Source: an uncultured Clostridium sp. (GTDB lineage Bacteria; Bacillota; Clostridia; TANB77; CAG-508). From it: a stretch of 64,000 nucleotides of DNA. The notes below the pieces were generated by a model that was not told where the DNA came from, did no database searches, and saw nothing but the letters and a program-made list of their open reading frames with translations. Every line of letters begins with the position of its first letter. Position 1 is the first letter of the stretch. Shown here in pieces: positions 15,905 to 48,942 of the stretch. A program made the translations under genes and the position numbers. The stretch spans positions 54,136-118,135 of the forward strand of contig USGY01000002.1 in assembly GCA_900554365.1 (NCBI GenBank), in the 5' to 3' direction.

Positions 15905-15936
15905 GTGAAACCTTCGGGTTATGAGCGAGGTTTGAC
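15905..15936 (-). repeat. degenerate att-core copy (decayed tRNA-fMet anticodon-loop fragment)
   Basis: The sequence GAAACCTTCGGGTTATGAGCGAGG matches the CCTTCGGGTTATGAG portion of the att cores at 34621 and 48898. The acceptor/T-arm part is not preserved. Confidence 0.4.
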
Positions 15937-16045
15937 CAGTTTTTGTAGTTTTGTGAAAATTAGAGTTTTTGTTGGTATTTCAGTATTTACAAGAGTTTCG
16001 GTTTATAGAACATTTGTGTCTTTTTATGACATTTTTTGAAGTTAT

Positions 16046-16068
16046 TTTACCCAATTTTTACCCAATTG
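16046..16068. repeat. tandem arm-type repeat TTTTACCCAATTTTTACCCAATT (left arm of element A)
   Basis: A direct tandem 10-mer. An identical copy lies at 34500-34522 near the right att of the same element. Confidence 0.6.
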
Positions 16069-16070
16069 CT

Positions 16071-16107
16071 TAGGCTGTAACAAACAAGTTTTAACAGCCT
16101 AAGTATG
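16071..16107. promoter_or_regulatory. perfect 11-bp-stem inverted repeat (CTTAGGCTGTT ... AACAGCCTAAG), a possible recombination-directionality or regulatory site
   Basis: Seen directly in the sequence, immediately after the arm repeats and upstream of the att-proximal small gene. Confidence 0.4.
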
Positions 16108-16223
16108 CAAAATTTTTACAAAAATTTTGTATTCCTTAGTTGGTACGTTTGTTCTTGGATTTTTGGCTCTTGTAAGAGATATTTTTATTGAGAAAAATTT
16201 TAATTTTTAGGAGGATTTAGATT

Positions 16224-16514
16224 ATGAATAATTTAAGAGAAGTTAATGATGATATTTTGAAGGATTGGTTAGAATTTAGAGAGGATGCTATTGCTTCGTT
16301 AGGTTGTGCAGAGGATAAAAAGCATTGGATTTATTTTGATGAGATTTCTGAGAGGATTTTGAAGAATGTTCCTGATCAGAATAGAAAGTATGTTGAGAAA
16401 CAACTAAAACAGCTTGATGATAATTTCTTTGATTATATTTGCTATTGGAATGAGAAGTATTATAGGAATGGATTTTGTGATGGGTTGCAACTGATTATGG
16501 GATGTTTTGAGTAA
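16224..16514 (+). CDS. conserved att-proximal hypothetical protein (paralog of 34828-35121)
   Basis: The 96-aa ORF follows a strong RBS (AGGAGG). It is about 60% identical to the first gene of element B (shared blocks NDDILK.WL.FRED, YFDEIS..IL.NVP, YWNEKYYRNGF.DG.QLI.GCF). Confidence 0.6.
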   Translation: MNNLREVNDDILKDWLEFREDAIASLGCAEDKKHWIYFDEISERILKNVPDQNRKYVEKQLKQLDDNFFDYICYWNEKYYRNGFCDGLQLIMGCFE

Positions 16515-16523
16515 ATTATAAAT

Positions 16524-16566
16524 AAAAGAATGTGAAGAATTATATTTATGGCTTTCACATTCTTTT
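16524..16566. terminator. bidirectional terminator hairpin between the small gene and the end of gajB
   Basis: AAAAGAATGTGAAG ... CTTTCACATTCTTTT stem-loop with flanking A and T runs. Confidence 0.6.
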
Positions 16567-16574
16567 ATTTAATA

Positions 16575-18365
16575 TTAACATCTTATCAAATTCTCTCTAC
16601 CTATTCCATTTAATTTTAAAAAACAACTTCCAATTTTAGTTGTTTCTCCCCATTTAGCAAGTCCCTTCTTGCTCATAGTAAAGTATACTTTCTCTTTTGC
16701 TCTTGTAAAACCTACATAAAAAACACTTAATTCCTCTAGGAACTGTTTTTCATTTTTGCTATTAAATGTATTTACACAATAATTATTTTTATTCTCTTGA
16801 TAACACTCTCTACATATATAATATGTCGGAAAAGTTTCTTTTTCATTATCTGTGAGAATTACATTATCATATTCCAGGCCTTTACTAGCATGTATTGTTG
16901 ATAAAATTATCTTTTCATCAACTTTATCCATATTTTGTCTTAAAGCAAAATTTTCAAAACTTTCTCTTATTAGTCTAATTTTTTCTTCTATACTAAATTG
17001 AGCATAATCGTCAAATATTCTATCACAAAAAATACTAAGAAGTTTAGTTAATGATCTAATTAAATTATCAGTCTCTTTGTAATAATTTTCTATAGCATTT
17101 ACTAATTGTTTTAATATTTTAGGAGTTACTACTTGTTTTTCTTTAATTAAAATATTAAATTTATTTAAGCATACTTCATGAAATTTTATATATTCTGGAT
17201 CTTCGTCTGTAAACAAAGCAAAAAAATACTGAATATTATTTTCATCTAATTTTTCTTTTATTTTTTGAACATTATAATCCTTTATGCCATTTCTTGACAA
17301 AATTGCTACTTTTCCCTCTTTGCTAATATCCAAAACTTTTGTACATATCCATTCGGCTTCTTTTTCTTGATTATCTGTAATAACTATATTAGGATTAGAT
17401 ATTTCTTCTATGGATGGATTATTTTTTTGTAATGCGTTTAATCTAATATTCTTATCTAATAGTAACATATCTTTATTTTCCTTAAATCTATAATTTGTTG
17501 ATAACTTAAATTTTCTCATATTAAATTCATTTTCAGCAATCTCCATTAAATTTGGAACTGCCCCAATAAATCCGTATATTCTTTGTAACGAATCACACAT
17601 TAATATTGCTTTTGTATTTTTTCCTATTATTTCTTTGATAAGCATCCATGCTATGCAATTGGTATCTTGAAATTCATCTATAAATACTATCGGGAAAAAT
17701 TTTTGATAAAAATTCTTTATTATTTTATTCTTTATTAATAATTCATATGTTAATAAAATAATAGCATTATATGTTATTTTTTGATTTACTAATAAATATT
17801 TTTTTACATATTCATTATATTTTAAATAATTATTTTGGATATATTCTTGGTCATTAATCTTTATTCTATCTTCAAAATCTTTAAAAAATTCTAGTTTTTC
17901 CCCGTCTATCCCATATTCTTTTAAGTTTTTGTCAGTTTCTTGAATAGCAGTAATAGTATTAAAATTTACATTCCCCTCTACAATAAAGAAACCATATTTT
18001 GCCAATATTTTTCTGCAAAATCCATGATAATTAGATACTACTATCTTATCAGTTTGTCTATAAGCTTCATTATGATCACATTTTATAATATTAGGCAATT
18101 GTTCCGATACATCTTTTTTTATTTTATATGATGCATTAACACTAAATGTTAATGCTAAAATTTTCTTTGTACTTTCTATATAGTTTGTGATAAGCATATA
18201 AGCTATTTTACTTATCATTGTTTTAGTTTTTCCACATCCTGCTGGAGCTTCGACAATTACTTTATCAGCTGTATCAAAAACAATTTCAATTTGATTCTGA
18301 TCCCCATTATGTATTTCAACTATTCTTTCCTTTATTTTTTCTAAATTATACATTTTTATTTGCAA
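16575..18365 (-). CDS. gajB: Gabija GajB, UvrD-like SF1 helicase
   Basis: The 596-aa ORF has Walker A APAGCGKT, the FIDEFQD block and helicase motif VI STIHASKGLEYDNVIL, matching B. cereus GajB. It overlaps the gajA stop by 20 nt. Confidence 0.85.
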   Translation of the reverse strand: MQIKMYNLEKIKERIVEIHNGDQNQIEIVFDTADKVIVEAPAGCGKTKTMISKIAYMLITNYIESTKKILALTFSVNASYKIKKDVSEQLPNIIKCDHNEAYRQTDKIVVSNYHGFCRKILAKYGFFIVEGNVNFNTITAIQETDKNLKEYGIDGEKLEFFKDFEDRIKINDQEYIQNNYLKYNEYVKKYLLVNQKITYNAIILLTYELLIKNKIIKNFYQKFFPIVFIDEFQDTNCIAWMLIKEIIGKNTKAILMCDSLQRIYGFIGAVPNLMEIAENEFNMRKFKLSTNYRFKENKDMLLLDKNIRLNALQKNNPSIEEISNPNIVITDNQEKEAEWICTKVLDISKEGKVAILSRNGIKDYNVQKIKEKLDENNIQYFFALFTDEDPEYIKFHEVCLNKFNILIKEKQVVTPKILKQLVNAIENYYKETDNLIRSLTKLLSIFCDRIFDDYAQFSIEEKIRLIRESFENFALRQNMDKVDEKIILSTIHASKGLEYDNVILTDNEKETFPTYYICRECYQENKNNYCVNTFNSKNEKQFLEELSVFYVGFTRAKEKVYFTMSKKGLAKWGETTKIGSCFLKLNGIGRENLIRC

Positions 18366-20076
18366 TCTCCTTTGCCTTATTCAAGGATTCTATATACACT
18401 TCTGGTATATTATTTTTACTTATTTGTTTTCCTAATAATCTCCCTCTAACCATGTCTTTTGTTTTCCATAGCCATGAAATTAGTATTAATTTAATCAATT
18501 CCGTATTACCTGTTGCTATAGCTTGGTTAATTGTATAATCTTTGCTAATAGTCACCTGTAGCCCTAATTTTTCATTATTTTTTTCCAGTTTTTTCTTTTG
18601 AAAATTTTTGTTTTTTCCATCTTTTTGATACAATTCAATTATTTCAACTACTTCATCTATAGCATCATTTAAAAATAATTTGTTAACAATATCACATTCA
18701 AAGTCTCTATCATTAGTATATATATATTCTTGCTTTATATCATCTCCATCATCTTTATCTAGTACACAAATAACATCTATTCCAAAATTTTTTATAACTC
18801 TCTCTATCAATGGAATAGAAGTCTTCCCTCCTGCCCCAATAATTGCTATTTTTAAATAATCTAAATCCATATTTAATTTTTGTGCAAAATATGGTATTGA
18901 GCCTATTTCTGATATTCCTTCATATATTAGCACTACACTTGAAAAGAAACTTTCCTTTATATCTTGCATATGTGCTAATAAATGTTTTTCCTCATCTATT
19001 TCGAAAGTAATATCCATTCCAGACTTTGCCAAAATCTGATTTTTTACTTTAAATAATCTAATATATTCCTTATAATTATCAGATAATATATTTGGGGAAT
19101 GTGTGCATACTATCATCTGCCCTATTAATCCGTCTAAGTTAAAACACGTTTTTAATAATTCTATGAATCCTTTATCTTCATTATTTATTATCTTTTTTAA
19201 ATTATTCATTAAATTTCTCTGCATATATGGGTGTAAATGTATTTCTGGTTCATCTAGAGCAATTATAAGTGGTAAAAACTTTTTACCTTCTTTATCTATA
19301 AATGCAATTTCTTTATCACTATCTATTTTTTTCATTATTGTATTTAATATTTCAAAAAATACATATGACATATATCTTATACCACTTCCCATATTATTGA
19401 TAGATATATTATCTTTATCACTTAGCCCAATTAATTGAGGTATAAGTTTAGTAGCATCATTTTCCAATTTAGCAGCAATGTCAAAGTTTTGTATCAAATT
19501 AATCTTATATAATAATTCATTTATACTATTTGCTACATCATTAATTTTACTTTCATCTACAACATCTTGAGATGCTATTTTATTTTCTTTTATATATTTT
19601 TCGATTATATTATTTAAAAATTTTCCAGCAGTTTTACTCTTACTAAAATTCAATTCCTCTGGTGCTTTAACTGAATTATAATACACAAAAGGTAAATTTC
19701 TAATTTTTGTATATGGTATAACTAAGTCTGTTTCTTTATGGAAAAATTCTACTCTCCCATTATTATTTTCTTGTAAAGCTACAATAGTTATTTCATTTTC
19801 TCGATTTGTATCAAATAGGTCATCAAAATACCCTATTTCCAAATCTGATAGTTCTAATTTCATATTAACTTCAATTTTCTCATTTAAGTTACAAAAGTCA
19901 TTTTCATTAAATGCTCCTCTATTAAAAATAGTATTTAATAAATCTAATATACTACTTTTCCCTATACCATTATCTCCTAATATATATGATTTTTTTGCAT
20001 TAAAATTTATATTTACATTATTTAATCCCCTATAATTTTTTATTTCTATATTTTTAATTATCATATTATTTCTCAC
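18346..20076 (-). CDS. gajA: Gabija GajA, OLD-family ABC ATPase plus Toprim nuclease
   Basis: The 576-aa ORF has an N-terminus matching GajA (IKNIEIKNYRGLNNVNINF...GDNGIGKSS), Walker B/H-loop LDEPEIHLHP, and Toprim residues (YEGISE, VLDKDDGDD). Confidence 0.9.
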   Translation of the reverse strand: MRNNMIIKNIEIKNYRGLNNVNINFNAKKSYILGDNGIGKSSILDLLNTIFNRGAFNENDFCNLNEKIEVNMKLELSDLEIGYFDDLFDTNRENEITIVALQENNNGRVEFFHKETDLVIPYTKIRNLPFVYYNSVKAPEELNFSKSKTAGKFLNNIIEKYIKENKIASQDVVDESKINDVANSINELLYKINLIQNFDIAAKLENDATKLIPQLIGLSDKDNISINNMGSGIRYMSYVFFEILNTIMKKIDSDKEIAFIDKEGKKFLPLIIALDEPEIHLHPYMQRNLMNNLKKIINNEDKGFIELLKTCFNLDGLIGQMIVCTHSPNILSDNYKEYIRLFKVKNQILAKSGMDITFEIDEEKHLLAHMQDIKESFFSSVVLIYEGISEIGSIPYFAQKLNMDLDYLKIAIIGAGGKTSIPLIERVIKNFGIDVICVLDKDDGDDIKQEYIYTNDRDFECDIVNKLFLNDAIDEVVEIIELYQKDGKNKNFQKKKLEKNNEKLGLQVTISKDYTINQAIATGNTELIKLILISWLWKTKDMVRGRLLGKQISKNNIPEVYIESLNKAKEIANKNV

Positions 20077-20084
20077 CTTTTAAT

Positions 20085-21413
20085 TTAATATTTTAAATTA
20101 TCTTCTTCTATTATTCTTATATCTGCACCTTTTTCATTTAACTCTTGAGCTTTTGCTTGTTTGCCACCTATCTTTCCAAATTTCCATGCATCGCTGCCAA
20201 CACCTCCAACTATTAAATAATCTAATTTTGATGATACTCCTGCCTTCTCTATTGCACCTAGTTCTTGTAATCTCTTAGATACTTCTTGCTTAGTAGCAGT
20301 CTTAAATTCACCTGTTAGACAAAATGTCTTCCCTTTAAAATCTATATTTTCATCATTATTAAAATCTGGATGTACTATTTCATTAAATATACTAAGAATA
20401 TAATTACTTTCTTCTTCAGTTAAAAATCCATCCTCTAGTACTTTACTTACTTCTAGAAGAACTTTGTCATAAGGATATACATCTTTTAAATAATCATTTT
20501 GCTTTAACCATATATTCAAATTATCTAACTCTTTTTGATTTACTTTTTGATTGCATACAATTCCATCTAATATTCCATTTAATATTTGTAAAGACAACGT
20601 TGATTCACTATACATTTTAGAATTATTTATACTTGTTACTAATTTTTCTAGTTCAATTCTTTCATATTCTGTAATTATATTATCCTCTAAAATTTCTTCT
20701 AATTTATTAATTATTCTATTAAATAATAAATATTGTTTATATAGTCTATTATCTTCCACCCAAGATTTAAGTTTCCCAATTTCTTTATCATCTATTATTC
20801 CATCATAATTAATTCCTTTAATTATTCCATATAATGTATTTATATTTGTTTCTAATTTTGAATCTAAGCTATCCAATACTTTACTTTCAAATTCAAATTT
20901 TTCACAACTTCCAATATCATTATTACAATTTAAATATTCAAATATTTTCTGACTTGCTTTAGCATCTTCTAATGCATTGTGATGATTTTCTAGATTAATA
21001 TTCAACAAATTACATAAATTATTTAAACTATAACTGTTAGTATTAATACAGTTTCTCGATAATTTAAGAGTACAATAATAATTAAATATAGGTACTTTTA
21101 TTTCGTAGCGTTCTAGTGCTTTTGCAATTACTGTTAAATCATAAATAACATTATGACCTATAATAATGTTATCTGATAATAAATCTTTTATATTCTCCCA
21201 ATATTCTTTAAAAGTTGGTGCATCTTTAACATCAGAATAATTTAAACCTGTTATATTACTATTATTTGTATCAAATCTATCCTCTGGATTTATTAATGAA
21301 TACTTTTCATCTACAATCTTATTATCTTTAACAATAATAATTCCTATTGAACATATTGAATTACCTCTTGCATTTGGGTTTTCTATATCAATGCTTATAT
21401 AATCTTTTATCAT
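20085..21413 (-). CDS. DEDDh (DnaQ-like) 3'-5' exonuclease fused to a C-terminal BRCT domain
   Basis: It has Exo I-III motifs (SIDIENPN, HNVIYDL, H..LEDA) and a BRCT fold signature at the C-terminus (FKGKTFCLTGEF...LDYLIVGG). Only 8 nt separate it from gajA. Confidence 0.7.
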   Translation of the reverse strand: MIKDYISIDIENPNARGNSICSIGIIIVKDNKIVDEKYSLINPEDRFDTNNSNITGLNYSDVKDAPTFKEYWENIKDLLSDNIIIGHNVIYDLTVIAKALERYEIKVPIFNYYCTLKLSRNCINTNSYSLNNLCNLLNINLENHHNALEDAKASQKIFEYLNCNNDIGSCEKFEFESKVLDSLDSKLETNINTLYGIIKGINYDGIIDDKEIGKLKSWVEDNRLYKQYLLFNRIINKLEEILEDNIITEYERIELEKLVTSINNSKMYSESTLSLQILNGILDGIVCNQKVNQKELDNLNIWLKQNDYLKDVYPYDKVLLEVSKVLEDGFLTEEESNYILSIFNEIVHPDFNNDENIDFKGKTFCLTGEFKTATKQEVSKRLQELGAIEKAGVSSKLDYLIVGGVGSDAWKFGKIGGKQAKAQELNEKGADIRIIEEDNLKY

Positions 21414-21435
21414 ATTTCATTTCTCCATTCTTTAA

Positions 21436-22254
21436 CTATAATACTTTATTTTCTATATCTTTTTCTTTTATAATCTCCTCTTTATTAACTTCATATCTCA
21501 CTATCCCAATATATTCTCCTTTTAATATGTTAGTAGCAGTATAGTGAACATTTAATATTTGCCTATACCAATTTGATAGTACATCTTCATAATATACAAT
21601 AATATCCATATCATATGGTTCTTTTGAACTTTTTAAAGAGAAGAATTTATTTATTGTTCTCTCTTCTCCTTTTTCAAAAACTTCTAAGGAATAATTTCCT
21701 AATATTCTATATGTTGAATTGTTTATCAGAGGAGATTTAAAATCTACTTTAATATTTTTAATATTATTAAGTCCTATATTTTTTATTGATATATTCAAAC
21801 TATATGCATGTCCATTATCGACATTTGTAATTATTAGTTCTTCAAGTTCGCCTTTTCCCTTATTTTCTGTATCTATAGAGTACTTTAATATTGGCATATT
21901 TTGAACTCGTAAATTTTCTTTATCTCTTTCAATATTGTCCTCATTATTCTTTTTTATCTGTAATATTGTTACAATTACAAGTACTACTGCACTTATTACT
22001 GCAGAAATAATTCCTGCCGAATAATTAGCTAAAAATCCTAACCAGTTTTGAGAATTAACATTAACACTCCAACCTAAGTATGTTGGTATATTATATCTAT
22101 CTAAATAATAAATTACAATTGGTACCATCGACACAAAAAATAACAATATGTATAAACTTTTTTCCAAATCATCTTTGCACTTTTTATAGTTAATATAACA
22201 AAAATTTGCTATAATCCCTAATATTATAATTGTTGTTAATATATTAATTACCAT
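21436..22254 (-). CDS. membrane protein (3 N-terminal transmembrane helices plus a ~170-aa soluble domain), first gene of the Gabija-containing operon
   Basis: A 272-aa ORF, 22 nt upstream of the exonuclease gene on the same strand, with no recognised domain. Confidence 0.4.
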   Translation of the reverse strand: MVINILTTIIILGIIANFCYINYKKCKDDLEKSLYILLFFVSMVPIVIYYLDRYNIPTYLGWSVNVNSQNWLGFLANYSAGIISAVISAVVLVIVTILQIKKNNEDNIERDKENLRVQNMPILKYSIDTENKGKGELEELIITNVDNGHAYSLNISIKNIGLNNIKNIKVDFKSPLINNSTYRILGNYSLEVFEKGEERTINKFFSLKSSKEPYDMDIIVYYEDVLSNWYRQILNVHYTATNILKGEYIGIVRYEVNKEEIIKEKDIENKVL

Positions 22255-22321
22255 ATTTTATACCCCTTATATATATATCTTATTTGTTATAAAAAATTTG
22301 TCGAAACTTGTCTCTTATTAT

Positions 22322-22372
22322 CAAAAAACAAAATAATTCTGTAATATATATTACTATTATTTGGCTTTTCTT
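22322..22372. repeat. AT-rich long-stem hairpin repeat (family member 1 of 3)
   Basis: AAAACAAAATAAT-[loop TCTGTAATATATATTACT]-ATTATTTGGCTTTT. Homologous copies lie at 24311-24364 and 37924-37972. Confidence 0.55.
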
Positions 22373-22443
22373 TTGTTATTTAATTAGTCATTATATTTAA
22401 CTTCTGTTCCATCATCTAAAGTCTTAACTATTTTACTAAAATC

Positions 22444-22569
22444 TTATGCACCTATATGTGCATAATAACTCCCACCATCAATATAACACGATTCACATTT
22501 ACAAGATACTAAATCATGTACACTTTTAGATTCTATTATATCTCCACAAATTAAGCATTTTATTTTCAT
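22444..22569 (-). CDS. small zinc-ribbon protein (41 aa), absent from the 60-aa ORF track
   Basis: The ORF encodes MKIKCLICGDIIESKSVHDLVSCKCESCYIDGGSYYAHIGA. It is preceded by a strong RBS (GAGGAGG, 7-nt spacing) and has a CxxC...CxC..C pattern. Confidence 0.4.
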   Translation of the reverse strand: MKIKCLICGDIIESKSVHDLVSCKCESCYIDGGSYYAHIGA

Positions 22570-22613
22570 AATTATCCTCCTCTCAATTTTTATATCATAA
22601 ATTTAAATTTTTA

Positions 22614-22859
22614 TTACCAGCCATAATATGATCCATATCTATCTAACTTATTATTTTTGTTTTCTAATGATTCTTGATGTTCTCTTTTTCCAAGTATTTC
22701 ATCTTCTTTATCTATTATTGGATCAAACCAATCTGCTTTTTTATTAGCCCATTTAATCCAATCTTTCATTTCGTTCGATAAATTATCTTGACTTGATATA
22801 GCATTAATGTAATTTCTAATTTCACATGCTATTCTATAATCTTCTGCTAAATTTAACAA
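22614..22859 (-). CDS. hypothetical protein
   Basis: An 81-aa ORF of unknown function. Confidence 0.3.
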   Translation of the reverse strand: MLNLAEDYRIACEIRNYINAISSQDNLSNEMKDWIKWANKKADWFDPIIDKEDEILGKREHQESLENKNNKLDRYGSYYGW

Positions 22860-22904
22860 TTTTTTAACTTTCTGTGCCTCATTTTTTTTTGCATTTCTTA
22901 TTTT

Positions 22905-23912: not shown

Positions 23913-23945
23913 ATTTTCCTAGCGAAAATGCGAACTCATATAATT

Positions 23946-24320: not shown

Positions 24321-24364
24321 AATAATATTGTAATATACTTAATTACTCTTTTATTTTGCTTTTC
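24311..24364. repeat. AT-rich long-stem hairpin repeat (family member 2 of 3)
   Basis: AAAAGCAAAATAAT-loop-TTATTTTGCTTTT, located between the R gene end and the upstream small gene. Confidence 0.55.
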
Positions 24365-24390
24365 TTATGTTTAATTCAATATATCTATTA

Positions 24391-26166: not shown

Positions 26167-26178
26167 GGTTTTTCCTCC

Positions 26179-39857: not shown

Positions 39858-39872
39858 ATATTTTCCTCGCTT

Positions 39873-42800
39873 TTAATTGCATATTGTTTTTATATTTTCT
39901 TCCATATCTTCATCAAGTTTCAAGATTTCTTTTTCGCATCTTGATATTTTATCATTTATTATCGAAATATCTTTTACAAATTTTTCTTGTTCATCATAAT
40001 TAACAACAGGGATCTTAACTTCCTTAATTTTATTTAGATGAAGATTAGGAACACCCATACCAATAACTTTATTTAAAAATTCATTTCTAATCGTTTCTGA
40101 ATTTATCACTTCTAAAACATATTCTGGCAAAATATTATTTTTAGTTCTTAATACTGCTAAACTAACGTAAACATCAAATGGAATATCTCTATCAACTATT
40201 GCTGCATATCCTATTGTACCATTTTTAGCTATTAGAATATCATTTAATTTAGGCGAAATTCTTTTAGAAAGCTTCTCATGTAACTGATTTGATACATATT
40301 TTATATTATCCCAATCTATTTTTTTATTTATTACATTTGTCGCTGATAAAAAAGGAATTCCATTTTTAGTATATTCAGGAGTATTATGTGTTCCGTCAGT
40401 AATTAATTCGCATATTTCATCTAATGTATTATATGTCTTTGTATTAAATGTTGAATTTATCAATTTATTCTTTTCATTAAAATAATCTTTTATTTTTTCT
40501 TCTATATTTTTCTTTTGCTCTTGGATTTCATTAGCTCTTTTAGTAAATTTATCTTGTATGTTGGTAGGAGGTACAGGAATTAATATATTCTTTAAGTTTT
40601 CTTGATTTATCCCTCCTATTCCAGCACCATTTACGTTTGCTTTTAATATTTCTTGTCCTTTCTTTGATCCAAGTATATAAAATAAATAGTCCTGAGAAAC
40701 ATTTTGATTAGTTCTTATAATATAAACATGTTCATTTGCTAACATTTCCTCATTAATTTTATTTGGTATTTTACAAATCTTCCCTGACAAAGCACCATCC
40801 TTACATATTAGTATATCTCCACCATTAATTTTACCTGTATTTGCTTTGTCATAAAAATCCTTTGGTACATATTTTTTATTTTTTAAATCAAGTTTTTGAT
40901 TTAATCCAATATGTTCCCCACCAATAGATATAATCCCTGTTTTATATTTTGACACTCCGCCTCTTGGTCTATCTCCAACTTCTATTGTATCTAATAAATT
41001 TCCTAGTTTCATATTTGAATAGTTACTGTTAAATTTTATTTTTTTTTTGTTTATTAAAGAAATGCTTTTATCAAAAATAACTTTTGTAAAATCCAATAAA
41101 TCAGTGGTTTTTACTATTTTTATATTTTTACTAATTTCTTCTTTAATATCAATTTGCTTATTTAATAATGCATTTTTTACATAATAATTTGCTTTTAAAC
41201 TATTATCATCACAATTATCATCGTATAAACTTGTTACATGATTACCTTTTTCGTCTCTATATATCTTTATTCCTTCTGATCCTCTTCTATTGCTAAACTC
41301 ATATCCTAGAAAATCTTTCTCATCTTGTTTTTGTTTAGATTTTACTTTTATGATAGTAGTCATATCGTTGCACATCAAAATGTAATTAAATAATTTTTCT
41401 CTCTCAGTAGATATAATTGTATTTACAATAAGTTCATCAATATCAATTCTATCTAGACTTTTCTTTGATTTTAGTATAGTATTTATTACATGATTTTTAT
41501 ATTCTTTATAAAAATTATGTTTTAAAATATTTTTATTTGGAATTTTTCTGAATATTGATAAATAATCTGTAATATCAATATTTTCATAAACATCCTCTAA
41601 ATACTTGCTAACAATACTTGTTATTCCGTTAATAGTAAAATCTTGTGGATTATCAATAAAATTATTTAATGCATATTCTATATTTTTGTGAAAAATATCT
41701 TCCCTTCGTTCTAAAAATAAAGTCACTGTATTAGTTCCTGTAGCCATAAATGTATTTGAACCAAATTCAGTAATAGCTGCTACTCTAAAATACTTAAATA
41801 GTAATTCTCTAGTTGGAATATATATTCCAGAATTTGTCAGAATTGAAATAGGCAATATAATTCCAGCAATTCCCCCTGGTTTTAATAATTGTTTTGTTCT
41901 TTCTATAAATAAACATTCTATTTCAGAACTATCATCTGTTAAATATTTATATAGTTCAAAACTATCTTTTCCATTCTCTAGAGTATTTTTGAATGAAGAT
42001 ACCGAATAAGGTGGATTAGCTATTACAATATCAAATTGTTTATTATCTTGGTGGTTTTCTTTACTATATTCTTTAAGTATTCCCTTATAATCTTTTGATT
42101 TTTCAAAATTATCTAATCCATTTGCCCTTATAATATTAGCATCACCATCTCCATTTAAAAATGAACTTACTTTTGTTGTTTTTACTAATCTATAATCTGC
42201 TTCTATTCCATATACACAATCATTAGCCCACTTAAACTCTCCTTGTTTCCATAGGTTAATATTATCTTTTGCTTCTCTTCTAATGTTAGTTGAATCATAC
42301 TTTGAAATAACTTTTTGTAACTCGTCCATATATTCTGTTAGGAAATGTCCACTGCCAGAAGCATAATCAATAGCAATCGGTAAAATATTATTTTCATCAT
42401 TATTAATTTTTTTGTCTATTATTTCTTTTATAGGAATTGATGAAATAATAAATTTTGCAATGGGTACAGGTGTAAAAAACTGACCAGCTTCCTGTTTTAT
42501 ACTTGTATTCAATAATAGTTCAAAAAAATCTCCAAGAAATTGTTGTTTATGTGAATATCTAAATTGATATGGTTGCAATAATTCTACAATTTCTTTAACT
42601 ACAATTCCATTCATTTTAAAAGACTGTTCATTATATACTTCTTTAAATGCAAATTCTGGATTTTTTTGTAGTCTCAATTTTTGAAACATCTCTTCAATTT
42701 GATTTTTAGTGTTTTCCTCATGAATATTTGCTAATTTATTTTTTAAATCCTCTTCTGAATAATCTGTAACTTCTATTTCAAGAAATTTTTTCATTCCTCG

Positions 42801-43682
42801 TTTATATAAATTATTAAGCCTTCCTTGTAATTTTTCATCTGTATCATCTTCACGCCATTGAAAATCAACTTCTTCTTCATCTCTTTTATCTTCATCTATT
42901 ATTTTGCATATAAATAAATTTAATATCTTATTAAATGCATTTGGCTTGTCTGAAACCGCATTATGCCTTAAAATTTCTGCAAATTGGTTAAAAATTCTTC
43001 CACTATCATCTTGACTTAGTTCTTTTAGCTGTCCTCTTCTTAAGGATTTATTCTCAAAATCATAACAATTTACCCATTCCTCAAAAATACCATTATCGTA
43101 AAAATTTTTATTCCAATAATCATAAATTTCTTTTTGATTATTAAGTTCATTCCATATCTTATCTACTTTAACAATTGCATTTTTGTATTCTATTTTCTCA
43201 TTTATTAATTTAGAAGTATATAGGCATAAATATTCAGCTGATTTATCTTGAATATAATAAGAAAAAAGTTGTCCCCCGTAATTTAACATTCTTTTCTGTT
43301 CTTTTTTATATTCTTCGCCCCATGTTTTACATTCAATCATTATATATGCTTTATTATCTTTAAAAATTAGAATATCTAATTTTCCTTTTTCTTTTCTTCC
43401 AAGTGGAAATTTGTGTTCTAAAGATAAATCTTCAGGATTATATCCCTTTTCCAATATTCTATCTATACACTCTAAAACAACAAAATTTTCTGAATTTTCA
43501 AAATTACTAGTAGTTAGATCTCCTATTTTGATCAAATTTCCATAATTTATTTTTTGTTCTTCGAAATTAATATTTATAATATATCCATTATAGTTTTTTT
43601 CAAAAATGTCTTTAACCCCATCTTTAGGATAATAATTTAATTTTAATAACAATTTTTTTATTTGTTCATTAGATATCTTCAT
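39873..43682 (-). CDS. Type IIB-like single-chain restriction-modification-specificity enzyme (PD-(D/E)xK nuclease + gamma-class N6-adenine MTase + two TRDs)
   Basis: The 1269-aa ORF has an N-terminal PD...D/ExK pattern (GKLDILIFKD...IMIECK), MTase motifs FFTPVPIAKFI (X/I region) and VIANPPYS (IV), and a C-terminal HsdS-like duplicated TRD (GDILICKDGALSGKI; ILIAKNGTIGYAAIV). The size and architecture resemble AloI/PpiI/CjeI. Confidence 0.8.
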   Translation of the reverse strand: MKISNEQIKKLLLKLNYYPKDGVKDIFEKNYNGYIININFEEQKINYGNLIKIGDLTTSNFENSENFVVLECIDRILEKGYNPEDLSLEHKFPLGRKEKGKLDILIFKDNKAYIMIECKTWGEEYKKEQKRMLNYGGQLFSYYIQDKSAEYLCLYTSKLINEKIEYKNAIVKVDKIWNELNNQKEIYDYWNKNFYDNGIFEEWVNCYDFENKSLRRGQLKELSQDDSGRIFNQFAEILRHNAVSDKPNAFNKILNLFICKIIDEDKRDEEEVDFQWREDDTDEKLQGRLNNLYKRGMKKFLEIEVTDYSEEDLKNKLANIHEENTKNQIEEMFQKLRLQKNPEFAFKEVYNEQSFKMNGIVVKEIVELLQPYQFRYSHKQQFLGDFFELLLNTSIKQEAGQFFTPVPIAKFIISSIPIKEIIDKKINNDENNILPIAIDYASGSGHFLTEYMDELQKVISKYDSTNIRREAKDNINLWKQGEFKWANDCVYGIEADYRLVKTTKVSSFLNGDGDANIIRANGLDNFEKSKDYKGILKEYSKENHQDNKQFDIVIANPPYSVSSFKNTLENGKDSFELYKYLTDDSSEIECLFIERTKQLLKPGGIAGIILPISILTNSGIYIPTRELLFKYFRVAAITEFGSNTFMATGTNTVTLFLERREDIFHKNIEYALNNFIDNPQDFTINGITSIVSKYLEDVYENIDITDYLSIFRKIPNKNILKHNFYKEYKNHVINTILKSKKSLDRIDIDELIVNTIISTEREKLFNYILMCNDMTTIIKVKSKQKQDEKDFLGYEFSNRRGSEGIKIYRDEKGNHVTSLYDDNCDDNSLKANYYVKNALLNKQIDIKEEISKNIKIVKTTDLLDFTKVIFDKSISLINKKKIKFNSNYSNMKLGNLLDTIEVGDRPRGGVSKYKTGIISIGGEHIGLNQKLDLKNKKYVPKDFYDKANTGKINGGDILICKDGALSGKICKIPNKINEEMLANEHVYIIRTNQNVSQDYLFYILGSKKGQEILKANVNGAGIGGINQENLKNILIPVPPTNIQDKFTKRANEIQEQKKNIEEKIKDYFNEKNKLINSTFNTKTYNTLDEICELITDGTHNTPEYTKNGIPFLSATNVINKKIDWDNIKYVSNQLHEKLSKRISPKLNDILIAKNGTIGYAAIVDRDIPFDVYVSLAVLRTKNNILPEYVLEVINSETIRNEFLNKVIGMGVPNLHLNKIKEVKIPVVNYDEQEKFVKDISIINDKISRCEKEILKLDEDMEENIKTICN

Positions 43683-43796
43683 TTTATTTCCCCCATGGCA
43701 TTATATCATAAAAATTTTTTTTTGCATAGCCCTTTTCGACATTTTTTTCAATCCTATAAATTACTTATCTCAAGCATATTTTCGCCATTTTAGTGC

Positions 43797-44420
43797 TTAA
43801 TTTCTTCCAAAAAATTCATCATATATGTAACCGTCTTTTATATACTTCTCTGTCAATTCCATTTTGTATTTTACTAATAGTTCTAAATACTTTTGTTTAA
43901 ATACATTTTTACAAAGCCATTCCACTCCTCCTTTTGAAATTATCACTTTATTATTTATTAAAAATTTATATTCACTCAATCCACAGTCACACAGTTTCTT
44001 AATTGCTTTTCTAACAGTAATATCTTTTCTATTAAAATACTTACATAATTGTTTTATATTCATATCTTCATTCCACCAATTTTCATCGTGATCCACCTTC
44101 AGAAATTCTTCATATAATTTAATTCTTGTTTCAAAAAAATCTACATCAGCATCAATTAATGATTTTTCTTTTTGAAAATATACTCGCTTTAACCATTCAT
44201 ATCCCTCTATTAAAATAAAATATTTTCTACTTCTAATTTTCTCACTTCTCCATCTACATGTTGGATGTTTTTTTACCATAACATCTACAGCTTTTCTTAA
44301 ATCCATATGAGTTATTTCTTTTCCATGTTTAGTTGTTATTCCTAATGAATGTAGTCTCTTTAAAATTTTGTTATAAGATAAGAAAATACTATCTAAAACT
44401 TGCTCTGAATCTCTTCTCAT
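43797..44420 (-). CDS. conserved phage/satellite-associated protein (paralog of 27458-28081)
   Basis: A 207-aa ORF about 75% identical to the element-A copy. Confidence 0.55.
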   Translation of the reverse strand: MRRDSEQVLDSIFLSYNKILKRLHSLGITTKHGKEITHMDLRKAVDVMVKKHPTCRWRSEKIRSRKYFILIEGYEWLKRVYFQKEKSLIDADVDFFETRIKLYEEFLKVDHDENWWNEDMNIKQLCKYFNRKDITVRKAIKKLCDCGLSEYKFLINNKVIISKGGVEWLCKNVFKQKYLELLVKYKMELTEKYIKDGYIYDEFFGRN

Positions 44421-44440
44421 TTTTTCATCACTTCCTTAAT

Positions 44441-44612
44441 ATAAAATTTATTAATGCTAGTTTACAAAGCATTAATAATTAGCAAAATTTATTTTGCTCG
44501 AATTTTAGGTAGTATTTTTTAGTACCTAATATTCGCCAGCCTGGTGTCTTGACACCTTTTTTGCTGTTTAGGGCAAAATGCCCTAAAACCTTTTTAGCTC
44601 TCCGAGGGATAT
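44441..44612 (-). promoter_or_regulatory. conserved structured noncoding leader, copy 2
   Basis: See copy 1. The same hairpins are preserved (TTAGGGCAAAATGCCCTAA, GGTGTCTTGACACC, AATGCT...AGCATT). Confidence 0.5.
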
Positions 44613-44751
44613 TTTTATTATAAAAATTAGGACAAATATGTACAAAAATTTATACTTTCTTGTCCTAATTTTTTCATTCATTTCTATTTACTTTTTTGAA
44701 AAAATCAATTATAATTTTTATATAAAATATTTAAAAAAGTTATCTTTTTAG

Positions 44752-45621
44752 TTAGTTATTGTTACCGCAATTACTAACTTTTTTCTTTTGAATTCTATGA
44801 TCTATATCATCAATCTTTACTAAATAGCACATCTCATATAGTCGAGAAATGATTGACTTTGCTGTTTCAATTTCTTCATTAATACTTAACCTTTTTACTA
44901 GAGAATTTTGATTATAATTTGTTGTTATAATTACTGGTAAATTATTTTCATATCTACTATTTATGATAGTAAATAATTTTTCTAATCCCCATTCACTTGG
45001 CTTTTCTTTCCCTAAATCATCTATAATTAATAGATCAACATTTTCATATAGTTTGATGATTTCCATCTCAGAAATACTATTATCTATTTCATATGAATTT
45101 CGTAATTCTGCTAATAAATTAATTAATGTTCCGTATATTACTGGTATTCCGTTTTCTATAAATTTATTTGCAATACTACATGCTAAATGTGTTTTACCCA
45201 CTCCATTATTTCCAACTAAAATGAGTCCTTTTTTCTCTATGTTATTTACTAATTTTTCACTATAATTTTTTAAATTATTAAATGCTTTCTTATTGCTATT
45301 ATTAATTTCAAAATTGTCAAATTTATAGATCAAGTTTCTTTTACTCATCTTACTGTTTTTTATAATTTTTTCAACTTTTCTCGAAAACTCTTGCATTAAT
45401 TCTAGCTTTTTTTCTTCTTCAATTATCCTTAACTTTTTCAGATCATATTCATTCCAATATTTCTGTGCATCCTTACATTTGCATCTTTCATAATCCAAAG
45501 TTATTACTCTCTTAGTACCATATAGTTCCCATTCTATTATTTTTCTGTGTAATTTATTTTTGCAATATTCACATTCAATGTAATCCCTTTTGTTAATCGA
45601 GGGTTTCAAAATTTGATTCAT
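44752..45621 (-). CDS. DnaC/IstB-like AAA+ helicase-loader ATPase (element B)
   Basis: Walker A GNNGVGKTHLA, Walker B LLIIDDLG, and an N-terminal CxxC. Confidence 0.8.
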   Translation of the reverse strand: MNQILKPSINKRDYIECEYCKNKLHRKIIEWELYGTKRVITLDYERCKCKDAQKYWNEYDLKKLRIIEEEKKLELMQEFSRKVEKIIKNSKMSKRNLIYKFDNFEINNSNKKAFNNLKNYSEKLVNNIEKKGLILVGNNGVGKTHLACSIANKFIENGIPVIYGTLINLLAELRNSYEIDNSISEMEIIKLYENVDLLIIDDLGKEKPSEWGLEKLFTIINSRYENNLPVIITTNYNQNSLVKRLSINEEIETAKSIISRLYEMCYLVKIDDIDHRIQKKKVSNCGNNN

Positions 45622-46063
45622 CTATTCTGCTCTCCTTTCTATTTTCTTCTTTTCTTGTCTTTTCTTCTGTAACTTTATTCAAACTTTTTTCAATTAAATT
45701 TTCTTCAACTACTTTATTTGATTTTCCAATTTTCTTTAGCTTTTCAGCACTTTGATACTTGCTCCAATTCTTTACGAAGTATGTATCATTTTTATAAATT
45801 AGCATTCCTAAATCGATAAATTTTTGTAAAATTTTCGTAAATGTTTTCGAAGATTTTCCAATAATATTTGTAAAATCTTTGATTTTAAATGGTGTATTAT
45901 CGCTAATATATAGTCCACCATCTCTGTTACATTCTCCAGCAATAGTTAAAATCTGAATCCATATTCTAAAATAGGTGTCCCCTTCCCTTTCTTTTAGTAG
46001 GATTTTAATTTTTCTATTTGAAAATATACTTGTATTTACTTTTATCCATCCAACTTGTCCCAT
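45593..46063 (-). CDS. phage replisome organizer N-terminal domain protein (element B)
   Basis: Paralog of 29227-29742. The start is trimmed to MGQVGWIKV to avoid overlapping xis. Confidence 0.6.
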   Translation of the reverse strand: MGQVGWIKVNTSIFSNRKIKILLKEREGDTYFRIWIQILTIAGECNRDGGLYISDNTPFKIKDFTNIIGKSSKTFTKILQKFIDLGMLIYKNDTYFVKNWSKYQSAEKLKKIGKSNKVVEENLIEKSLNKVTEEKTRKEENRKESRIDESNFETLD

Positions 46064-46077
46064 ATCCTCCCTTCTTT

Positions 46078-46293
46078 CTAGCAAGATTCTTCAATAGAAT
46101 CATTTTCTTTTTTGCTTAGATAAATATCTAAGGCTTCTTTTCTGAATAAAATTCTTTTCCCAACTCTAGAGCAAGGAATTTGTTTTCTTTTAACTAATTG
46201 CGTAATTAACCAATATGAAATTCCTAAATATTCTGCTGCTTCTTTTGCAGTTAGAGTTGTTCTTTTAATGTTATCTAGTGCCATTTCTTTCAC
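46078..46293 (-). CDS. xis: excisionase-family HTH DNA-binding protein (Xis-like, element B)
   Basis: The 71-aa ORF has LTAKEAAEYLGISYWLITQLVKRKQIPCSRVGKRILF. Confidence 0.7.
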   Translation of the reverse strand: MKEMALDNIKRTTLTAKEAAEYLGISYWLITQLVKRKQIPCSRVGKRILFRKEALDIYLSKKENDSIEESC

Positions 46294-46474
46294 CTCCTAA
46301 TATTTTTATAATTGTAGTTGACATATATAAATTATTATGGTATTATTTTGTCATACAATTATTATTTTTGTTTTTGATTGTATGGCTCTTTTATATAATA
46401 TTTTTCTGATATATGTAACCTTACAATTGAAAAAAGTTCAAAAATTTTTAATTTGTAGATATTAGGAGGTAAAG

Positions 46475-47470
46475 ATGTCACTATATAATATTGCTTTCGA
46501 TACTAATAATAAAACAGAATGTTTAAATCACTTTTCTATTAAGAAAAAGAAAGGATTTATATTCAAATCTGTAAATCGTTGTGAAATAAGACCTCTTGGT
46601 AGCATTCTTTTAGATTTTCTCAATATAGATATTGAAAACGGTGAAGATATGGTTAACTTTATAGCTAATTACTGTTTAGAGGATTTATTATTCAAATTGG
46701 CTAAAAAATCCAAATTAAATATATCTAAATATTATAAAAATGATAACTTTTACATAACAGAACAGGCATTATCAGACTTATTCTTTACCTTACAATCTGA
46801 ATATGAAGATGACTTTGAATTTTATCAAGATATATTTATTAATCTTATAACAAGTGAAAAAGAAAATATAAGCCCTAAAGAATTCGATAAAATCGAGGCT
46901 GATTTTAGAGCAGAATTTCCTGATTTATTTGAAGATGAATCTGCTAATTTTGATTTAATAAACTTAAGTTATAGGATAAATGATTTAACATTAGATTTTA
47001 CTATGGATGACTTTTACTATTTTCATAAAGAACTTAATCTGCCTAAAAGTATTCCATATTCTTTTAGAACTGATGATTATCTTAATGTGTTATTTATCTC
47101 ATATAAACAGTTATTGTCTTTAGATAGTAATATTAAGATAAAAAAATGTGCTAATTGTGGTAAATACTTTATTCCAAAAACTATGCATGATACTAAATAT
47201 TGCGATGAAATATTTAAAGATAATAAAACATGTAAAGAATTTGGTAGAGAACTAGCCTATAAAGAAAGTTTAGCGCAGAAGCCTATTCTTAAAGCTTATA
47301 GAAGTAGATATCAAACTCTTTCAAAGCAAGCATCTGAAAGAGAAAAACATGAAATGTATGAATATTTCAAAAAAGAAGGTCCTACAATTAGGAAAAAATT
47401 TATTGATGGAGAAATTACAGCAAAAGAATTTCAAGACTGGATTAATAGTACTAAAGTTAGGAAAAAATAA
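46475..47470 (+). CDS. conserved hypothetical protein with a C-terminal Cys4 zinc-ribbon (element B paralog)
   Basis: KKCANCGKYFI...YCDE...CKEFG. It lies immediately upstream of int. Confidence 0.45.
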   Translation: MSLYNIAFDTNNKTECLNHFSIKKKKGFIFKSVNRCEIRPLGSILLDFLNIDIENGEDMVNFIANYCLEDLLFKLAKKSKLNISKYYKNDNFYITEQALSDLFFTLQSEYEDDFEFYQDIFINLITSEKENISPKEFDKIEADFRAEFPDLFEDESANFDLINLSYRINDLTLDFTMDDFYYFHKELNLPKSIPYSFRTDDYLNVLFISYKQLLSLDSNIKIKKCANCGKYFIPKTMHDTKYCDEIFKDNKTCKEFGRELAYKESLAQKPILKAYRSRYQTLSKQASEREKHEMYEYFKKEGPTIRKKFIDGEITAKEFQDWINSTKVRKK

Positions 47471-47522
47471 TTTAATATATAAAATCCTTGCCATAGGTAT
47501 GCTGAAAGGAGGTGAAAAAGTA

Positions 47523-48698
47523 ATGGCAGGGTATCTTGAAAAGAGAGGCAAACGCTCTTGGAGATTAATTGTATCACATGGTTATGACAGCTATGGTAAC
47601 AGAATTAGATATACCAAAAGTATTAAAGCAAATAGTAGACGTGAGGCAGACAAAGAACTTGTAAACTTTGTTTACGAGATAGAAAATGGTATTGTTTTGC
47701 AAAACTCTTCAATGACATTTAAGGAATTTACAGATTTATGGGCTAAAAATTATGGTGAAAAAGAATTAGCACCTAAAACTTATGAAAGATATAAAGGAAT
47801 GCTAAAATCACGAATTATCCCCTACTTCGGTCATTATAAGTTATGCAATATAAAACCAACTCACATTATGAGTTTTTACGATTATCTTTCAAAAGATCAT
47901 CAACTTAAAAGATGTAAAAATCATAATGGAAAAACTGTAATGAAGGGCTTATCCTCTAAAACAATACTAGAACACCATCGTTTACTACATGCTATGTTAC
48001 AAAATGCTGTATATTGGCAAATACTACCTTATAATCCAGCAGACAGAGTAAAACCACCTAAGCATGAAAGACCTCAAATTAAATACTATGATGATGTTCA
48101 ATGTAAACAACTACTAGAGGCATTAGAAAATGAAGAAATTAAATTTCAAACTATTGTTATATTAACATTGTTTACTGGTATGCGTAGAGGCGAAGTATTG
48201 GGCTTAGAATGGTCAGATATCGATTTTAAAGAAGGTTTTGTTAATATTACTAAGTCAAGTCAATATATTGCAGATAAAGGCATTTTCGTAAAAGACCCAA
48301 AGACTCGTAGTTCAATTAGGAAAGTCGGAATACCTGATATTGTAATAAATATGCTAAATAAGTATAAAACTTGGTATGAACAAGAAAAAGAAAATTGTGG
48401 CAACTTATGGGTTAACTCAAATAGACTATTCGTTACTTGGAATGGTAAGCCAATGCATCCTGATACTGTTACAGATTGGTTTCGTTCTTTTATTGAAAAG
48501 AACAATTTACCGAAAATTACTTTCCATGGTTTGCGACACACAAATGCTACTTTGCTTATATCTAAAAATGTAGATGTAGCTGTTGTAGCGTCAAGATTAG
48601 GGCATGCTCAAATAACTACTACCTTAAACTTTTATGTGCATCCAGTAGAAGCTCATAATAAAGAGGCTGGTAATGTTTTAGAGAAAATGCTCGTATAA
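47523..48698 (+). CDS. int: tyrosine-type site-specific integrase, element B
   Basis: The start is trimmed to MAGYLEKRGK, which aligns with the element-A integrase MAGSIEKRGK and has the same GAAAGGAGGTG RBS. Catalytic motifs: HGLRHT...LGHAQITTTLNFYVH. Confidence 0.9.
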   Translation: MAGYLEKRGKRSWRLIVSHGYDSYGNRIRYTKSIKANSRREADKELVNFVYEIENGIVLQNSSMTFKEFTDLWAKNYGEKELAPKTYERYKGMLKSRIIPYFGHYKLCNIKPTHIMSFYDYLSKDHQLKRCKNHNGKTVMKGLSSKTILEHHRLLHAMLQNAVYWQILPYNPADRVKPPKHERPQIKYYDDVQCKQLLEALENEEIKFQTIVILTLFTGMRRGEVLGLEWSDIDFKEGFVNITKSSQYIADKGIFVKDPKTRSSIRKVGIPDIVINMLNKYKTWYEQEKENCGNLWVNSNRLFVTWNGKPMHPDTVTDWFRSFIEKNNLPKITFHGLRHTNATLLISKNVDVAVVASRLGHAQITTTLNFYVHPVEAHNKEAGNVLEKMLV

Positions 48699-48804
48699 AA
48701 ACTCTTTTCAAAATTTCTCGAAAATTACTTTTTTTGATTTTCAAAGTTTAATATAAATTAGCAAGGCTAAAGTATGCTATTTAATACATAAAAATGTAGG
48801 GACT

Positions 48805-48823
48805 GTCCCCAATTTGTCCCCAC
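48805..48823. repeat. arm-type repeat GTCCCCAATTTGTCCCCAC (right arm of element B)
   Basis: A direct tandem repeat of the xCCCCAxT type. It mirrors the left-arm GTCACCAATTTGTCACCAAT. Confidence 0.5.
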
Positions 48824-48897
48824 TTCTGTGAAAATAGATTTTTAGTCAAAAAAATAAGAGTCCACAATCTCTTGCGACTCTAATAAAATTTTTGGTT

Positions 48898-48942
48898 GCG
48901 GAGGTAAGACTCGAACTTACAACCTTCGGGTTATGAGAAATG
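48898..48942 (-). repeat. att core: tRNA-fMet 3' half, copy 3
   Basis: TGGTTGCGGAGGTAAGACTCGAACTTACAACCTTCGGGTTATGAG differs from the 34621 copy at two or three positions. Again no pairing 5' half follows. Confidence 0.7.

Follow-up and report, generated by a model that had tools for sequence, protein, structure and literature searches.

How can a tandem array of integrative islands be marked by pieces of a tRNA gene when the gene itself is absent? This question is raised by a stretch of 64,000 nt of low-GC (~26%) clostridial DNA, hereafter the window, in which sequences of an initiator tRNA (tRNA-fMet) gene recur as direct repeats, two of them beside the genes of the tyrosine integrases IntA and IntB. 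Throughout, tRNA-like sequences are read 5'-to-3' on the minus strand, attachment sites are abbreviated att, and gene content was annotated with Pfam, PADLOC and PHROGs. The answer that we favour, and hold to be quite likely, is that integrative anti-phage defence islands have stacked here into a tandem array, now orphaned, which comprises the elements A and B and a remnant C, their natural target being the tRNA-fMet gene at its anticodon loop.

Three Copies of a tRNA Fragment and no tRNA Gene

The plus-strand 16-nt core ACCTTCGGGTTATGAG, which reads CTCATAACCCGAAGGT on the minus strand, is present at exactly three positions in the window and is not found in shuffled sequence. In copy 2 (34615-34659, core at 34644-34659) and copy 3 (48893-48937, core at 48922-48937), both on the minus strand, the core is extended by 29 nt into a 45-nt tRNA-fMet 3' half, which belongs to element A and element B, respectively. 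A preliminary description of this DNA, made from the sequence alone, had placed these near-identical repeats about 5 nt too high, at 34621-34665 and 48898-48942; the repeats themselves are real and their assignment to tRNA-fMet was borne out, as copies 2 and 3, once reverse-complemented, match positions 32-76 of the genuine initiator tRNA found beside sister elements at 44/45 and 43/45 nucleotides. This reference tRNA displays the initiator hallmarks (C1 opposite A72, A11:U24, G29-31:C39-41 and the anticodon CAU), and both copies harbor what a 3' half should contain of them and of the tRNA fold, namely CAU in a 7-nt loop, C39-C41, a T-arm, A72 and an ACCA end. The differences from the canonical half amount to one transition in copy 2 (C66 to T) and two in copy 3 (a variable loop C to T, and C67 to T), which would form G·U pairs. 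Such small changes fit a relaxed constraint in an array devoid of the tRNA and are too few for proof.

Copy 1 (15910-15925, minus strand) presents these features only up to position 47, since it consists of the 16-nt att core, that is the anticodon loop, the 3' strand of the anticodon stem and part of the variable loop. It is followed by unrelated DNA, with 10/30 identical nucleotides over positions 16-45, the level expected by chance. The decayed half reported at about 15905 is thus replaced by a sharp 16-nt match. A TGGT (ACCA on the minus strand) is present at 15881-15884, at the exact offset of tRNA positions 42-45 relative to copy 1, and may be the final vestige of a displaced half or a coincidence.

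The absence of an intact tRNA gene was confirmed in the window by ARAGORN, and Rfam gave no match at gathering score over its whole length. Neither a degenerate pattern nor blastn-short recovered a tRNA-fMet 5' half in the window, the best matches being chance ones of ≤9 nt. As first described, an integrase gene lies just upstream of each of the two long copies: IntA (33144-34337, plus strand, 397 aa) stops 278 nt short of copy 2 and IntB (47523-48698, plus strand, 391 aa by gene calls) 195 nt short of copy 3. Both proteins match PF00589 and PF14659 and they are 54% identical to each other. The longest open reading frame (ORF) of IntB starts at 47349 (449 aa) and overlaps the upstream DUF6076 gene; the start at 47523 is that of the gene calls of ten independent contigs and aligns with the N-terminus of IntA.

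The Natural Target is an Intact tRNA-fMet Gene

Homologues of IntA number in the thousands, and those 95-98% identical to it occur in hundreds of human-gut contigs, one of which is named 'Clostridium sp. CAG:343'; a look-up of the exact IntA protein gave one further short contig only. Contexts were compared for two integrases close to IntA (95-97% identical) and for the exact IntB protein. In these contexts the integrase is always followed by CTCATAACCCGAAGG and the remainder of the 3' half. In L019, L026, L027, L030, L056, L058 and L060 this half is preceded by cgcggggtggagcagttggcagctcgtcggg, forming a complete tRNA-Met(CAT) according to ARAGORN, at a distance of ~200-310 nt from the integrase. 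The bases directly after CCA vary from element to element at the integrase-side junctions, so that the boundary between chromosome and element lies inside the tRNA gene. Element B itself is found in L060, where the window segments 37747-46299 and 47458-48937 are present at 97.9 and 99.5% nucleotide identity, and there it adjoins an intact tRNA-fMet gene beside comEA, its half completing that tRNA. Because B in L060 and the sister elements complete tRNA-fMet in this way, the 45-nt copies are tRNA-restoring segments borne by the elements and not displaced chromosomal halves. The presence of B in nearly identical form at two chromosomal loci also indicates a recent movement of this 14-kb defence island.

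Serial integration had been proposed at the outset, and much of that proposal stands, namely two integrase-bearing elements arranged in tandem and site-specific for the anticodon loop of tRNA-fMet; its view that each 45-nt copy is a half displaced by an integration event does not survive the comparison with L060.

A few further observations concern the tRNA sequences. The integrase-side halves of L055, L057, L059 and L062, which belong to some of the IntB elements, carry a compensatory T-stem variant (GATAG...CTATC versus GTAAG...CTTAC). This covariation keeps the tRNA structure intact in an element-borne half and implies selection for tRNA function where the tRNA is rebuilt. A variant tRNA-fMet with the core CCCAAAGG and a different T-arm is encoded in L029 (9001-9076) and L061 (16018-16093), on the opposite strand and 3.4-4.6 kb from the array, and in L061 an integrase of a different family lies beside it. 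A crossover at the 3' edge of the core, which would ease the finding of short secondary sites, was considered and dropped, as CTCATAA is kept at every integrase-side junction (~27 loci).

A and B are Independent Units

Element A extends from 15926 to 34659 (18,734 bp) and element B from 34660 to 48937 (14,278 bp), one core being included in each. Both exhibit tandem arm repeats spaced by 11 nt, at matching distances on either side of each core, which is the classic attP layout. In A the repeat TTTTACCCAATT is present twice in the P arm (16045-16067, 120-142 nt from the core) and twice in the P' arm (34499-34521), between the integrase gene and the tRNA half, and these are its four exact copies in the whole window. 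In B the P arm harbors TTGTCACCAAT twice (34777-34798, 118-139 nt from the core) and the P' arm (C/T)TGTCCCCA twice with 11-nt spacing (48803-48822).

Sister strains, defined here as contigs encoding exactly the Spo0A or the ASCH protein of the window, establish the two elements as separate units. A 104-kb contig (L001/L008/L054) runs from spo0A through C and B directly to the ASCH side and lacks A. L008 aligns with window positions 44111-34644 at 100% and 15925-4979 at 99.99%, the 16-nt core being all that these alignments have in common; the core-to-core 18,734 bp are therefore the exact difference between the two strains. As judged from these alignments, A was gained or lost precisely, at direct repeats and at the far-end junction of B. 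This agrees with one of the alternatives initially put forward, in which att copies inside resident islands serve as targets. The B-only junction is also present in L009, L010 and L012, and the junction sequences of L014 and L015 agree with it. The junctions of the window itself recur as well: that of the A end, core and spacer in L011, that of the A integrase side, core and B end in L053, and that of the C junction, core and B half in L001, L003, L004, L054 and L063. In L013 the end of a third element, X, occupies the same chromosomal junction. In sister strains the junction core followed by ttcacctatgcc is thus joined to three different element ends (A, B and X), and since all three are found there, this junction of element end, core and spacer is a working att site without T-arm or acceptor sequence. 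A and B are independent units, intact and recently active. Apparent alternative states by spo0A in L006 (3212-3598) and L007 (1-146 and 2918-3383) were set aside because these low-coverage contigs are probably chimeric; their divergence from the window begins within the genes of the 201-aa and Zn-ribbon proteins, and L007 runs on into Ile-tRNA-synthetase-like sequence.

The Short Copy and Its Counterparts

What copy 1 represents is indicated by the far ends of related elements. A metagenome scan with the far end of element B plus the core yielded ten junctions. In L066 the core opens a full canonical half, in L068 a decayed half with 18/30 matching nucleotides, and in L072 a half cut at 31 nt, while in L070 the far end meets a tandem neighbour. 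In L064, L065, L067, L069, L071 and L073 identity ends after 15-17 nt and is followed by mutually unrelated, chromosomal-looking flanks. L065 and L068 are both located upstream of homologous GNAT genes and hence represent one site at two stages of decay, and the junctions of L069, L071 and L073 abut homologues of ASCH or CBAH (70-75% identity) in the orientation of the window. In a widespread species represented by ten strains with different element ends (L074-L083), a single junction lies upstream of TehB, CBAH, YgjP and mfd. At this junction cattaagttcaatag follows the core, and in it TAAGTTC is in register with the T-arm and 15/30 nucleotides match overall. The TehB gene located 3' of the relic in L074 has an orthologue in L057 (78% identical) that lies directly 3' of an intact tRNA-fMet; the intergenic DNA between tRNA or relic and TehB does not align and the TehB gene alone does, so that the orthology of the relic is positional only. 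A CBAH homologue (P0149) from a species with CBAH and ASCH and no core nearby was uninformative.

Copy 1 would thus be the eroded far-end attR relic of the array and its sole displaced copy, on the strength of this comparison. Its shortness is thus normal for the element family: when the recombination core alone is maintained, no more of a displaced half is left.

The 530-bp spacer between the att relic and ASCH (15378-15909) is non-coding, G/T-rich on the plus strand, with a local GC skew that flips to +0.12 and 20-21-nt tandem repeats at 15394-15475, and far-end flanks in other species are likewise A/C-rich in tRNA orientation. The ASCH of the window is 79-90% identical to the ASCH of a block of TehB, ASCH, NUDIX and His_Phos genes (L018, L021, L022, L061 and L062), a block found beside sister elements and immediately 5' of the core, and ASCH and TehB recur on either flank of these att sites in different species.

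A Probable Truncated Third Element and the Limits of the Accreted Block

To the right of B, the 139 bp of the C junction (48938-49076) have the structure of the P arm of a third element, with a tandem repeat of TAGGGGTA (two copies, 49053-49072) and a terminator-like hairpin. The repeats are 116-135 nt from the core, the same geometry as in the arms of A and B. In L029 the segment immediately 5' of the core shares 78% identity with the junction, and both L029 and L062 conserve it in this position beside different genes. Next to it lies the cargo operon of remnant C (49077-52781), with four minus-strand genes encoding a HEPN protein (49077-49709), a GmrSD_N protein similar to NsnA/PD-T4-2 (49712-50776), a YhcG PDDEXK nuclease (PDC-S02, 50798-51904) and a DEDDh exonuclease-BRCT protein (51807-52781). 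The remnant has neither backbone genes nor an integrase, and it is fixed in this species (20/20 contigs) and absent from the relatives L034-L036. No further core, with up to 2 mismatches, is present between 48922-48937 and spo0A, so that C has att on one side only. From its sequence, C is best read as the stump of a third element that lost its backbone and integrase and kept its cargo and P arm only. The preliminary description had noted an integrase-less nuclease operon in the place expected for the tRNA; an integrase is indeed lacking, but the operon is not unrelated DNA, as it ends in an arm with the geometry of A and B.

The island had also been delimited to 15905-48942, and the accreted region proved wider. 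On one side, the conserved chromosomal flank comprises spo0A (54928-55746, minus strand), accompanied by genes for a Zn-ribbon protein of 228 aa (53140-53826) and for proteins of 201 aa (53846-54451) and 59 aa (54520-54708). On the other, the first conserved chromosomal gene encodes a 125-aa protein (13492-13869, minus strand) and is followed by M23, M50, MinD, MinE and RodA. Relatives were 17 related species retrieved by a genome scan with Spo0A (67-82% identity). In L034, L035 and L036 both flanks are kept (Impact-Spo0A on one side; 125aa, M23, M50, MinD, MinE and RodA on the other) and are only 0.9-2.8 kb apart. Because the flanks adjoin so closely there, the ~39 kb from 13870 to 53139, which hold CBAH, ASCH, the spacer, A, B and C, are accreted DNA. 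The genes for CBAH (13956-14930) and ASCH (14979-15377), both on the minus strand, form with the spacer a block (13956-15909) linked to the att relic and missing from the gap between spo0A and the 125-aa gene in L034-L036. By this comparison the block appears not to be ancestral to this locus.

A Proposed Origin of the Orphaned Array

Besides a tyrosine integrase and a DUF6076 protein, each element encodes an HTH_17 protein resembling an excisionase and a replication module of phage type, made up of a replisome organiser and a DnaC-like loader. Its attP comprises a P arm, with a tandem repeat ~120-140 nt from the core, the 15-16-nt core, the other 29-30 nt of the tRNA 3' half and then a P' arm, in which the repeat recurs, by the integrase gene. 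We infer that recombination takes place within the core and would fuse the element's own 3' half to whatever is 5' of the target core. Where the target is a real tRNA-fMet gene, a working tRNA would be rebuilt; where it is another element, an orphan half would result. Copies 2 and 3 are then the element-borne halves of A and B, and copy 1 would be the half originally displaced to the array's far end, which, under no selection, would have eroded to its core, the core still being usable as att. What would be gone is the tRNA 5' half, and with it the reconstituted tRNA, together with the integrase module of C. The likeliest cause would be one deletion or rearrangement whose breakpoint fell within C, removing or leaving elsewhere the integrase module and the tRNA 5' half, and the same event would have put the block of C, B, A, spacer, ASCH and CBAH between spo0A and the M23/M50 genes. 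We regard such a single event as the simplest account of how the tRNA end was lost and in what order.

Several points weigh against this reconstruction. A tRNA or a core within 10 kb of spo0A is lacking in all 17 related species, and in L034-L036 the gap between spo0A and the 125-aa gene contains no tRNA, core, ASCH or CBAH. A tRNA at exactly this locus is thus unsupported, and either a translocation or a loss in the relatives must be assumed. For the same reason, the initial suggestion that the target tRNA had been deleted may be part of the story and is not the whole of it, since related species with identical flanks have no tRNA here. The tRNA-fMet genes of the host lie outside the window. 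Past position 16, copy 1 is at chance identity except for the ACCA at the exact 3' offset, and its descent from a real half is argued from comparison. A complete element C was not found, its truncation being deduced from arm geometry and defence cargo; a look-up of the exact protein of its exonuclease gave matches in this species alone, none within a complete element. Excision of A or B and excised circular forms were not observed, and all comparison loci are metagenome assemblies. Comparison of the locus between related strains, envisaged from the beginning, showed internal att copies in use in a sister strain from which A is missing exactly; no empty site was revealed by a scan of JGI metagenomes with the ASCH-side flank GAAGGTTTCACCTATGCCATATTT, which gave 0 hits.

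In a different origin, this DNA would never have been linked to a tRNA-fMet gene or to a piece of one: the first element would have entered a chance tRNA-like sequence by spo0A, and later ones would have used its att copies. Relatives with identical flanks have neither tRNA nor core here, neither a T-arm nor an acceptor sequence is recognisable in copy 1, and secondary att sites with tandem arrays are documented for Salmonella genomic island 1, SGI1 (PMC2297512). We nevertheless consider such a de novo secondary site unlikely. By our own estimate an exact 16-nt match is expected ~0.001 times per ~3 Mb genome, yet the same 15-17-nt relic is found at different loci in at least six other contigs, with decay intermediates in L068, L072 and L074; it is linked to ASCH/CBAH across species, and in L057 TehB is directly 3' of an intact tRNA-fMet.

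Far less probable is the possibility that the copies are three chromosomal 3' halves displaced by serial integration into one tRNA-fMet gene to the right of 48942, which would later have been deleted and replaced by an unrelated nuclease operon. This would suit the direct repeats, the presence of one integrase per repeat and the missing tRNA, but the integrase side is where the 45-nt copies lie, and they move along with the element, B taking its half to an intact tRNA in L060. In the canonical geometry the displaced half is moreover located at the integrase-distal end, where just 16 nt are left, and the nuclease operon terminates in a P arm of the family type. A mis-joining of similar elements in a metagenome-assembled genome, the real genome having the tRNA at the junction, might be invoked since the 74-95% identical A and B backbone segments could confuse assemblers and the low-coverage contigs L006 and L007 look chimeric, but it is hardly credible given that every junction is reproduced in independent assemblies (L053; L001, L003, L004, L054 and L063; L011; L008-L010, L012, L014 and L015).

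Relation to Known Integrative Elements

The orphaned array proposed here is one of tandem tDNA-targeting tyrosine-integrase islands, a known kind, and its biology is ordinary. Islander-type islands carry in attP a fragment of the targeted tRNA gene (tDNA), a class of sites centred on the anticodon exists among them, and tandem arrays contain one fragment and one integrase per island (PMC4383910). A and B resemble these islands by a tyrosine integrase gene next to att and an attP 3' tDNA fragment that restores the target, and they resemble the anticodon-centred class by an identity block starting from the anticodon loop, each tandem member possessing an integrase and a tDNA fragment of its own (PMC4383910). 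The integrase gene is at one end by att, the attP fragment regenerates the target in L060 and in sister elements, and gain or loss is precise. Unlike the Islander signature (PMC4383910), the head of the array here has no intact tDNA and the terminal displaced fragment is just 16 nt, so that the locus does not combine an intact tDNA at one end with a displaced cognate fragment at the opposite end. The locus departs from the strict signature solely by this missing intact tDNA, and its members demonstrably belong to that class at other loci.

SGI1 is likewise a site-specific island that stacks in tandem and is able to use a site other than its primary target (PMC2297512). It differs in targeting the 3' end of a protein gene and in that its arrays are copies of one element (PMC2297512), whereas the array described here combines different elements with 54%-identical integrases, and its non-tRNA site resembles a relic of the primary target more than an unrelated secondary site.

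Accretion of integrative and conjugative elements (ICEs) in streptococci leaves integrase-less, cis-mobilisable remnants (CIMEs), and a CIME is bounded by att on both sides. Remnant C has att on one side only, and the array has no conjugation genes. Site-specific accretion is also described for phage-ICE tandems (PMC13651849). Such accretion shares with the present locus a composite array in which some members have lost their recombination module, as C has.

A and B also recall phage satellites in several respects. Satellites similar to phage-inducible chromosomal islands (PICIs) or to P4 carry defence hotspots. The two elements are like them in size (14-19 kb) and in having an integrase, a replication module of phage type and an excisionase-like gene, with defence cargo that varies within fixed slots, and the combination of an integrase with its own replication initiation module, typical of PICI-like elements, is present in both. 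They differ in that no packaging, capsid-remodelling or helper-interference genes were detected. No relaxase or capsid genes were found, Pfam and PHROGs gave no packaging or morphogenesis gene in A or B, several small or unassigned ORFs remaining, and an IMG/VR scan with the end of element B plus the core gave 0 hits.

A literature search on tRNA-fMet, integrase and genomic island returned Sinorhizobium prophage papers only, and a search on DUF6076 no paper. The element family, which is abundant and rich in defence cargo, may itself be undescribed, and the backbone of integrase, DUF6076, excisionase-like, replisome-organiser and DnaC-like proteins with two cargo slots may serve as its mark. 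More tentatively, and with somewhat less conviction than doubt, we suggest that these are members of a very abundant, undescribed family of self-replicating defence islands in human-gut Clostridia (the 'Clostridium sp. CAG:343' group), and that their arrays have become independent of the targeted tRNA gene, persisting and still exchanging members at a 15-nt relic core when tRNA and displaced half are both gone. If this is true, the erosion series would define the minimal chromosomal att site.

The current understanding of site-specific recombination is unchanged by these findings, which have practical consequences. Island finders requiring an intact tRNA and a cognate fragment would miss such arrays, and element-borne tRNA halves are easily mistaken for scars of a lost gene. 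Population data provide a natural definition of the att site of this integrase family, as ~15 nt survive where the rest has decayed. Finally, the family is common in human-gut Clostridia and its two fixed slots hold numerous defence systems, known as well as candidate, which makes it a practical place to look for new defence genes.

Gene Content of A and B and Neighbouring Features

The backbones of A and B share segments that are 74-95% identical and the same gene order: cargo slot 1, a 207/224-aa protein, the DnaC-like loader, the replisome organiser, the excisionase-like HTH_17 protein, a divergent DUF6076 protein, cargo slot 2, the tyrosine integrase and the tRNA half. In A the gene for the 224-aa protein precedes those of the DnaC-like loader (28416-29252), the replisome organiser (29227-29742), HTH_17 (29771-29968) and DUF6076 (30118-31155). 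The corresponding genes of B encode the 207-aa protein (43797-44420), the loader (44752-45621), the replisome organiser (45593-46084), HTH_17 (46078-46293) and DUF6076 (46475-47470).

The first slot of A includes a Gabija system identified with PADLOC and Pfam (GajB, 16575-18365; GajA, 18346-20076), a PDC-S48 exonuclease-BRCT gene (20085-21413), and a restriction-modification system with an AlwI-like restriction endonuclease (24391-26166) and a D12 methyltransferase (26179-27015). Neither Pfam nor PADLOC matches three ORFs located between the PDC-S48 exonuclease and this system (21436-22254, 22905-23912 and 23946-24320); these are candidates for unknown defence genes. In B, a 102-aa ORF at the P-arm end (34813-35121) is followed by a PDC-S53 helicase (35152-37992), an HTH-Fic protein (PDC-S04, 37979-38914), a GIY-YIG protein (PDC-S14, 39024-39857) and a type IIG restriction-modification enzyme (39873-43682). 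The second slot, between DUF6076 and the integrase, encodes ThsB and PDC-M50 in A (31242-32900) and is void in B. Elsewhere it contains a Pycsar-like cyclase and PycTM together with a transposase in P0010 elements, an S8 peptidase and an AAA ATPase in P0102 elements, and an SH3_3 protein in L062.

Beyond spo0A, a 1271-aa ORF (60155-63970, minus strand) exhibits four internal DNA repeats of ~620-760 bp (repeat families D1, D4 and D6) and a weak CLIPPER Pfam hit, and probably encodes a repetitive surface protein.

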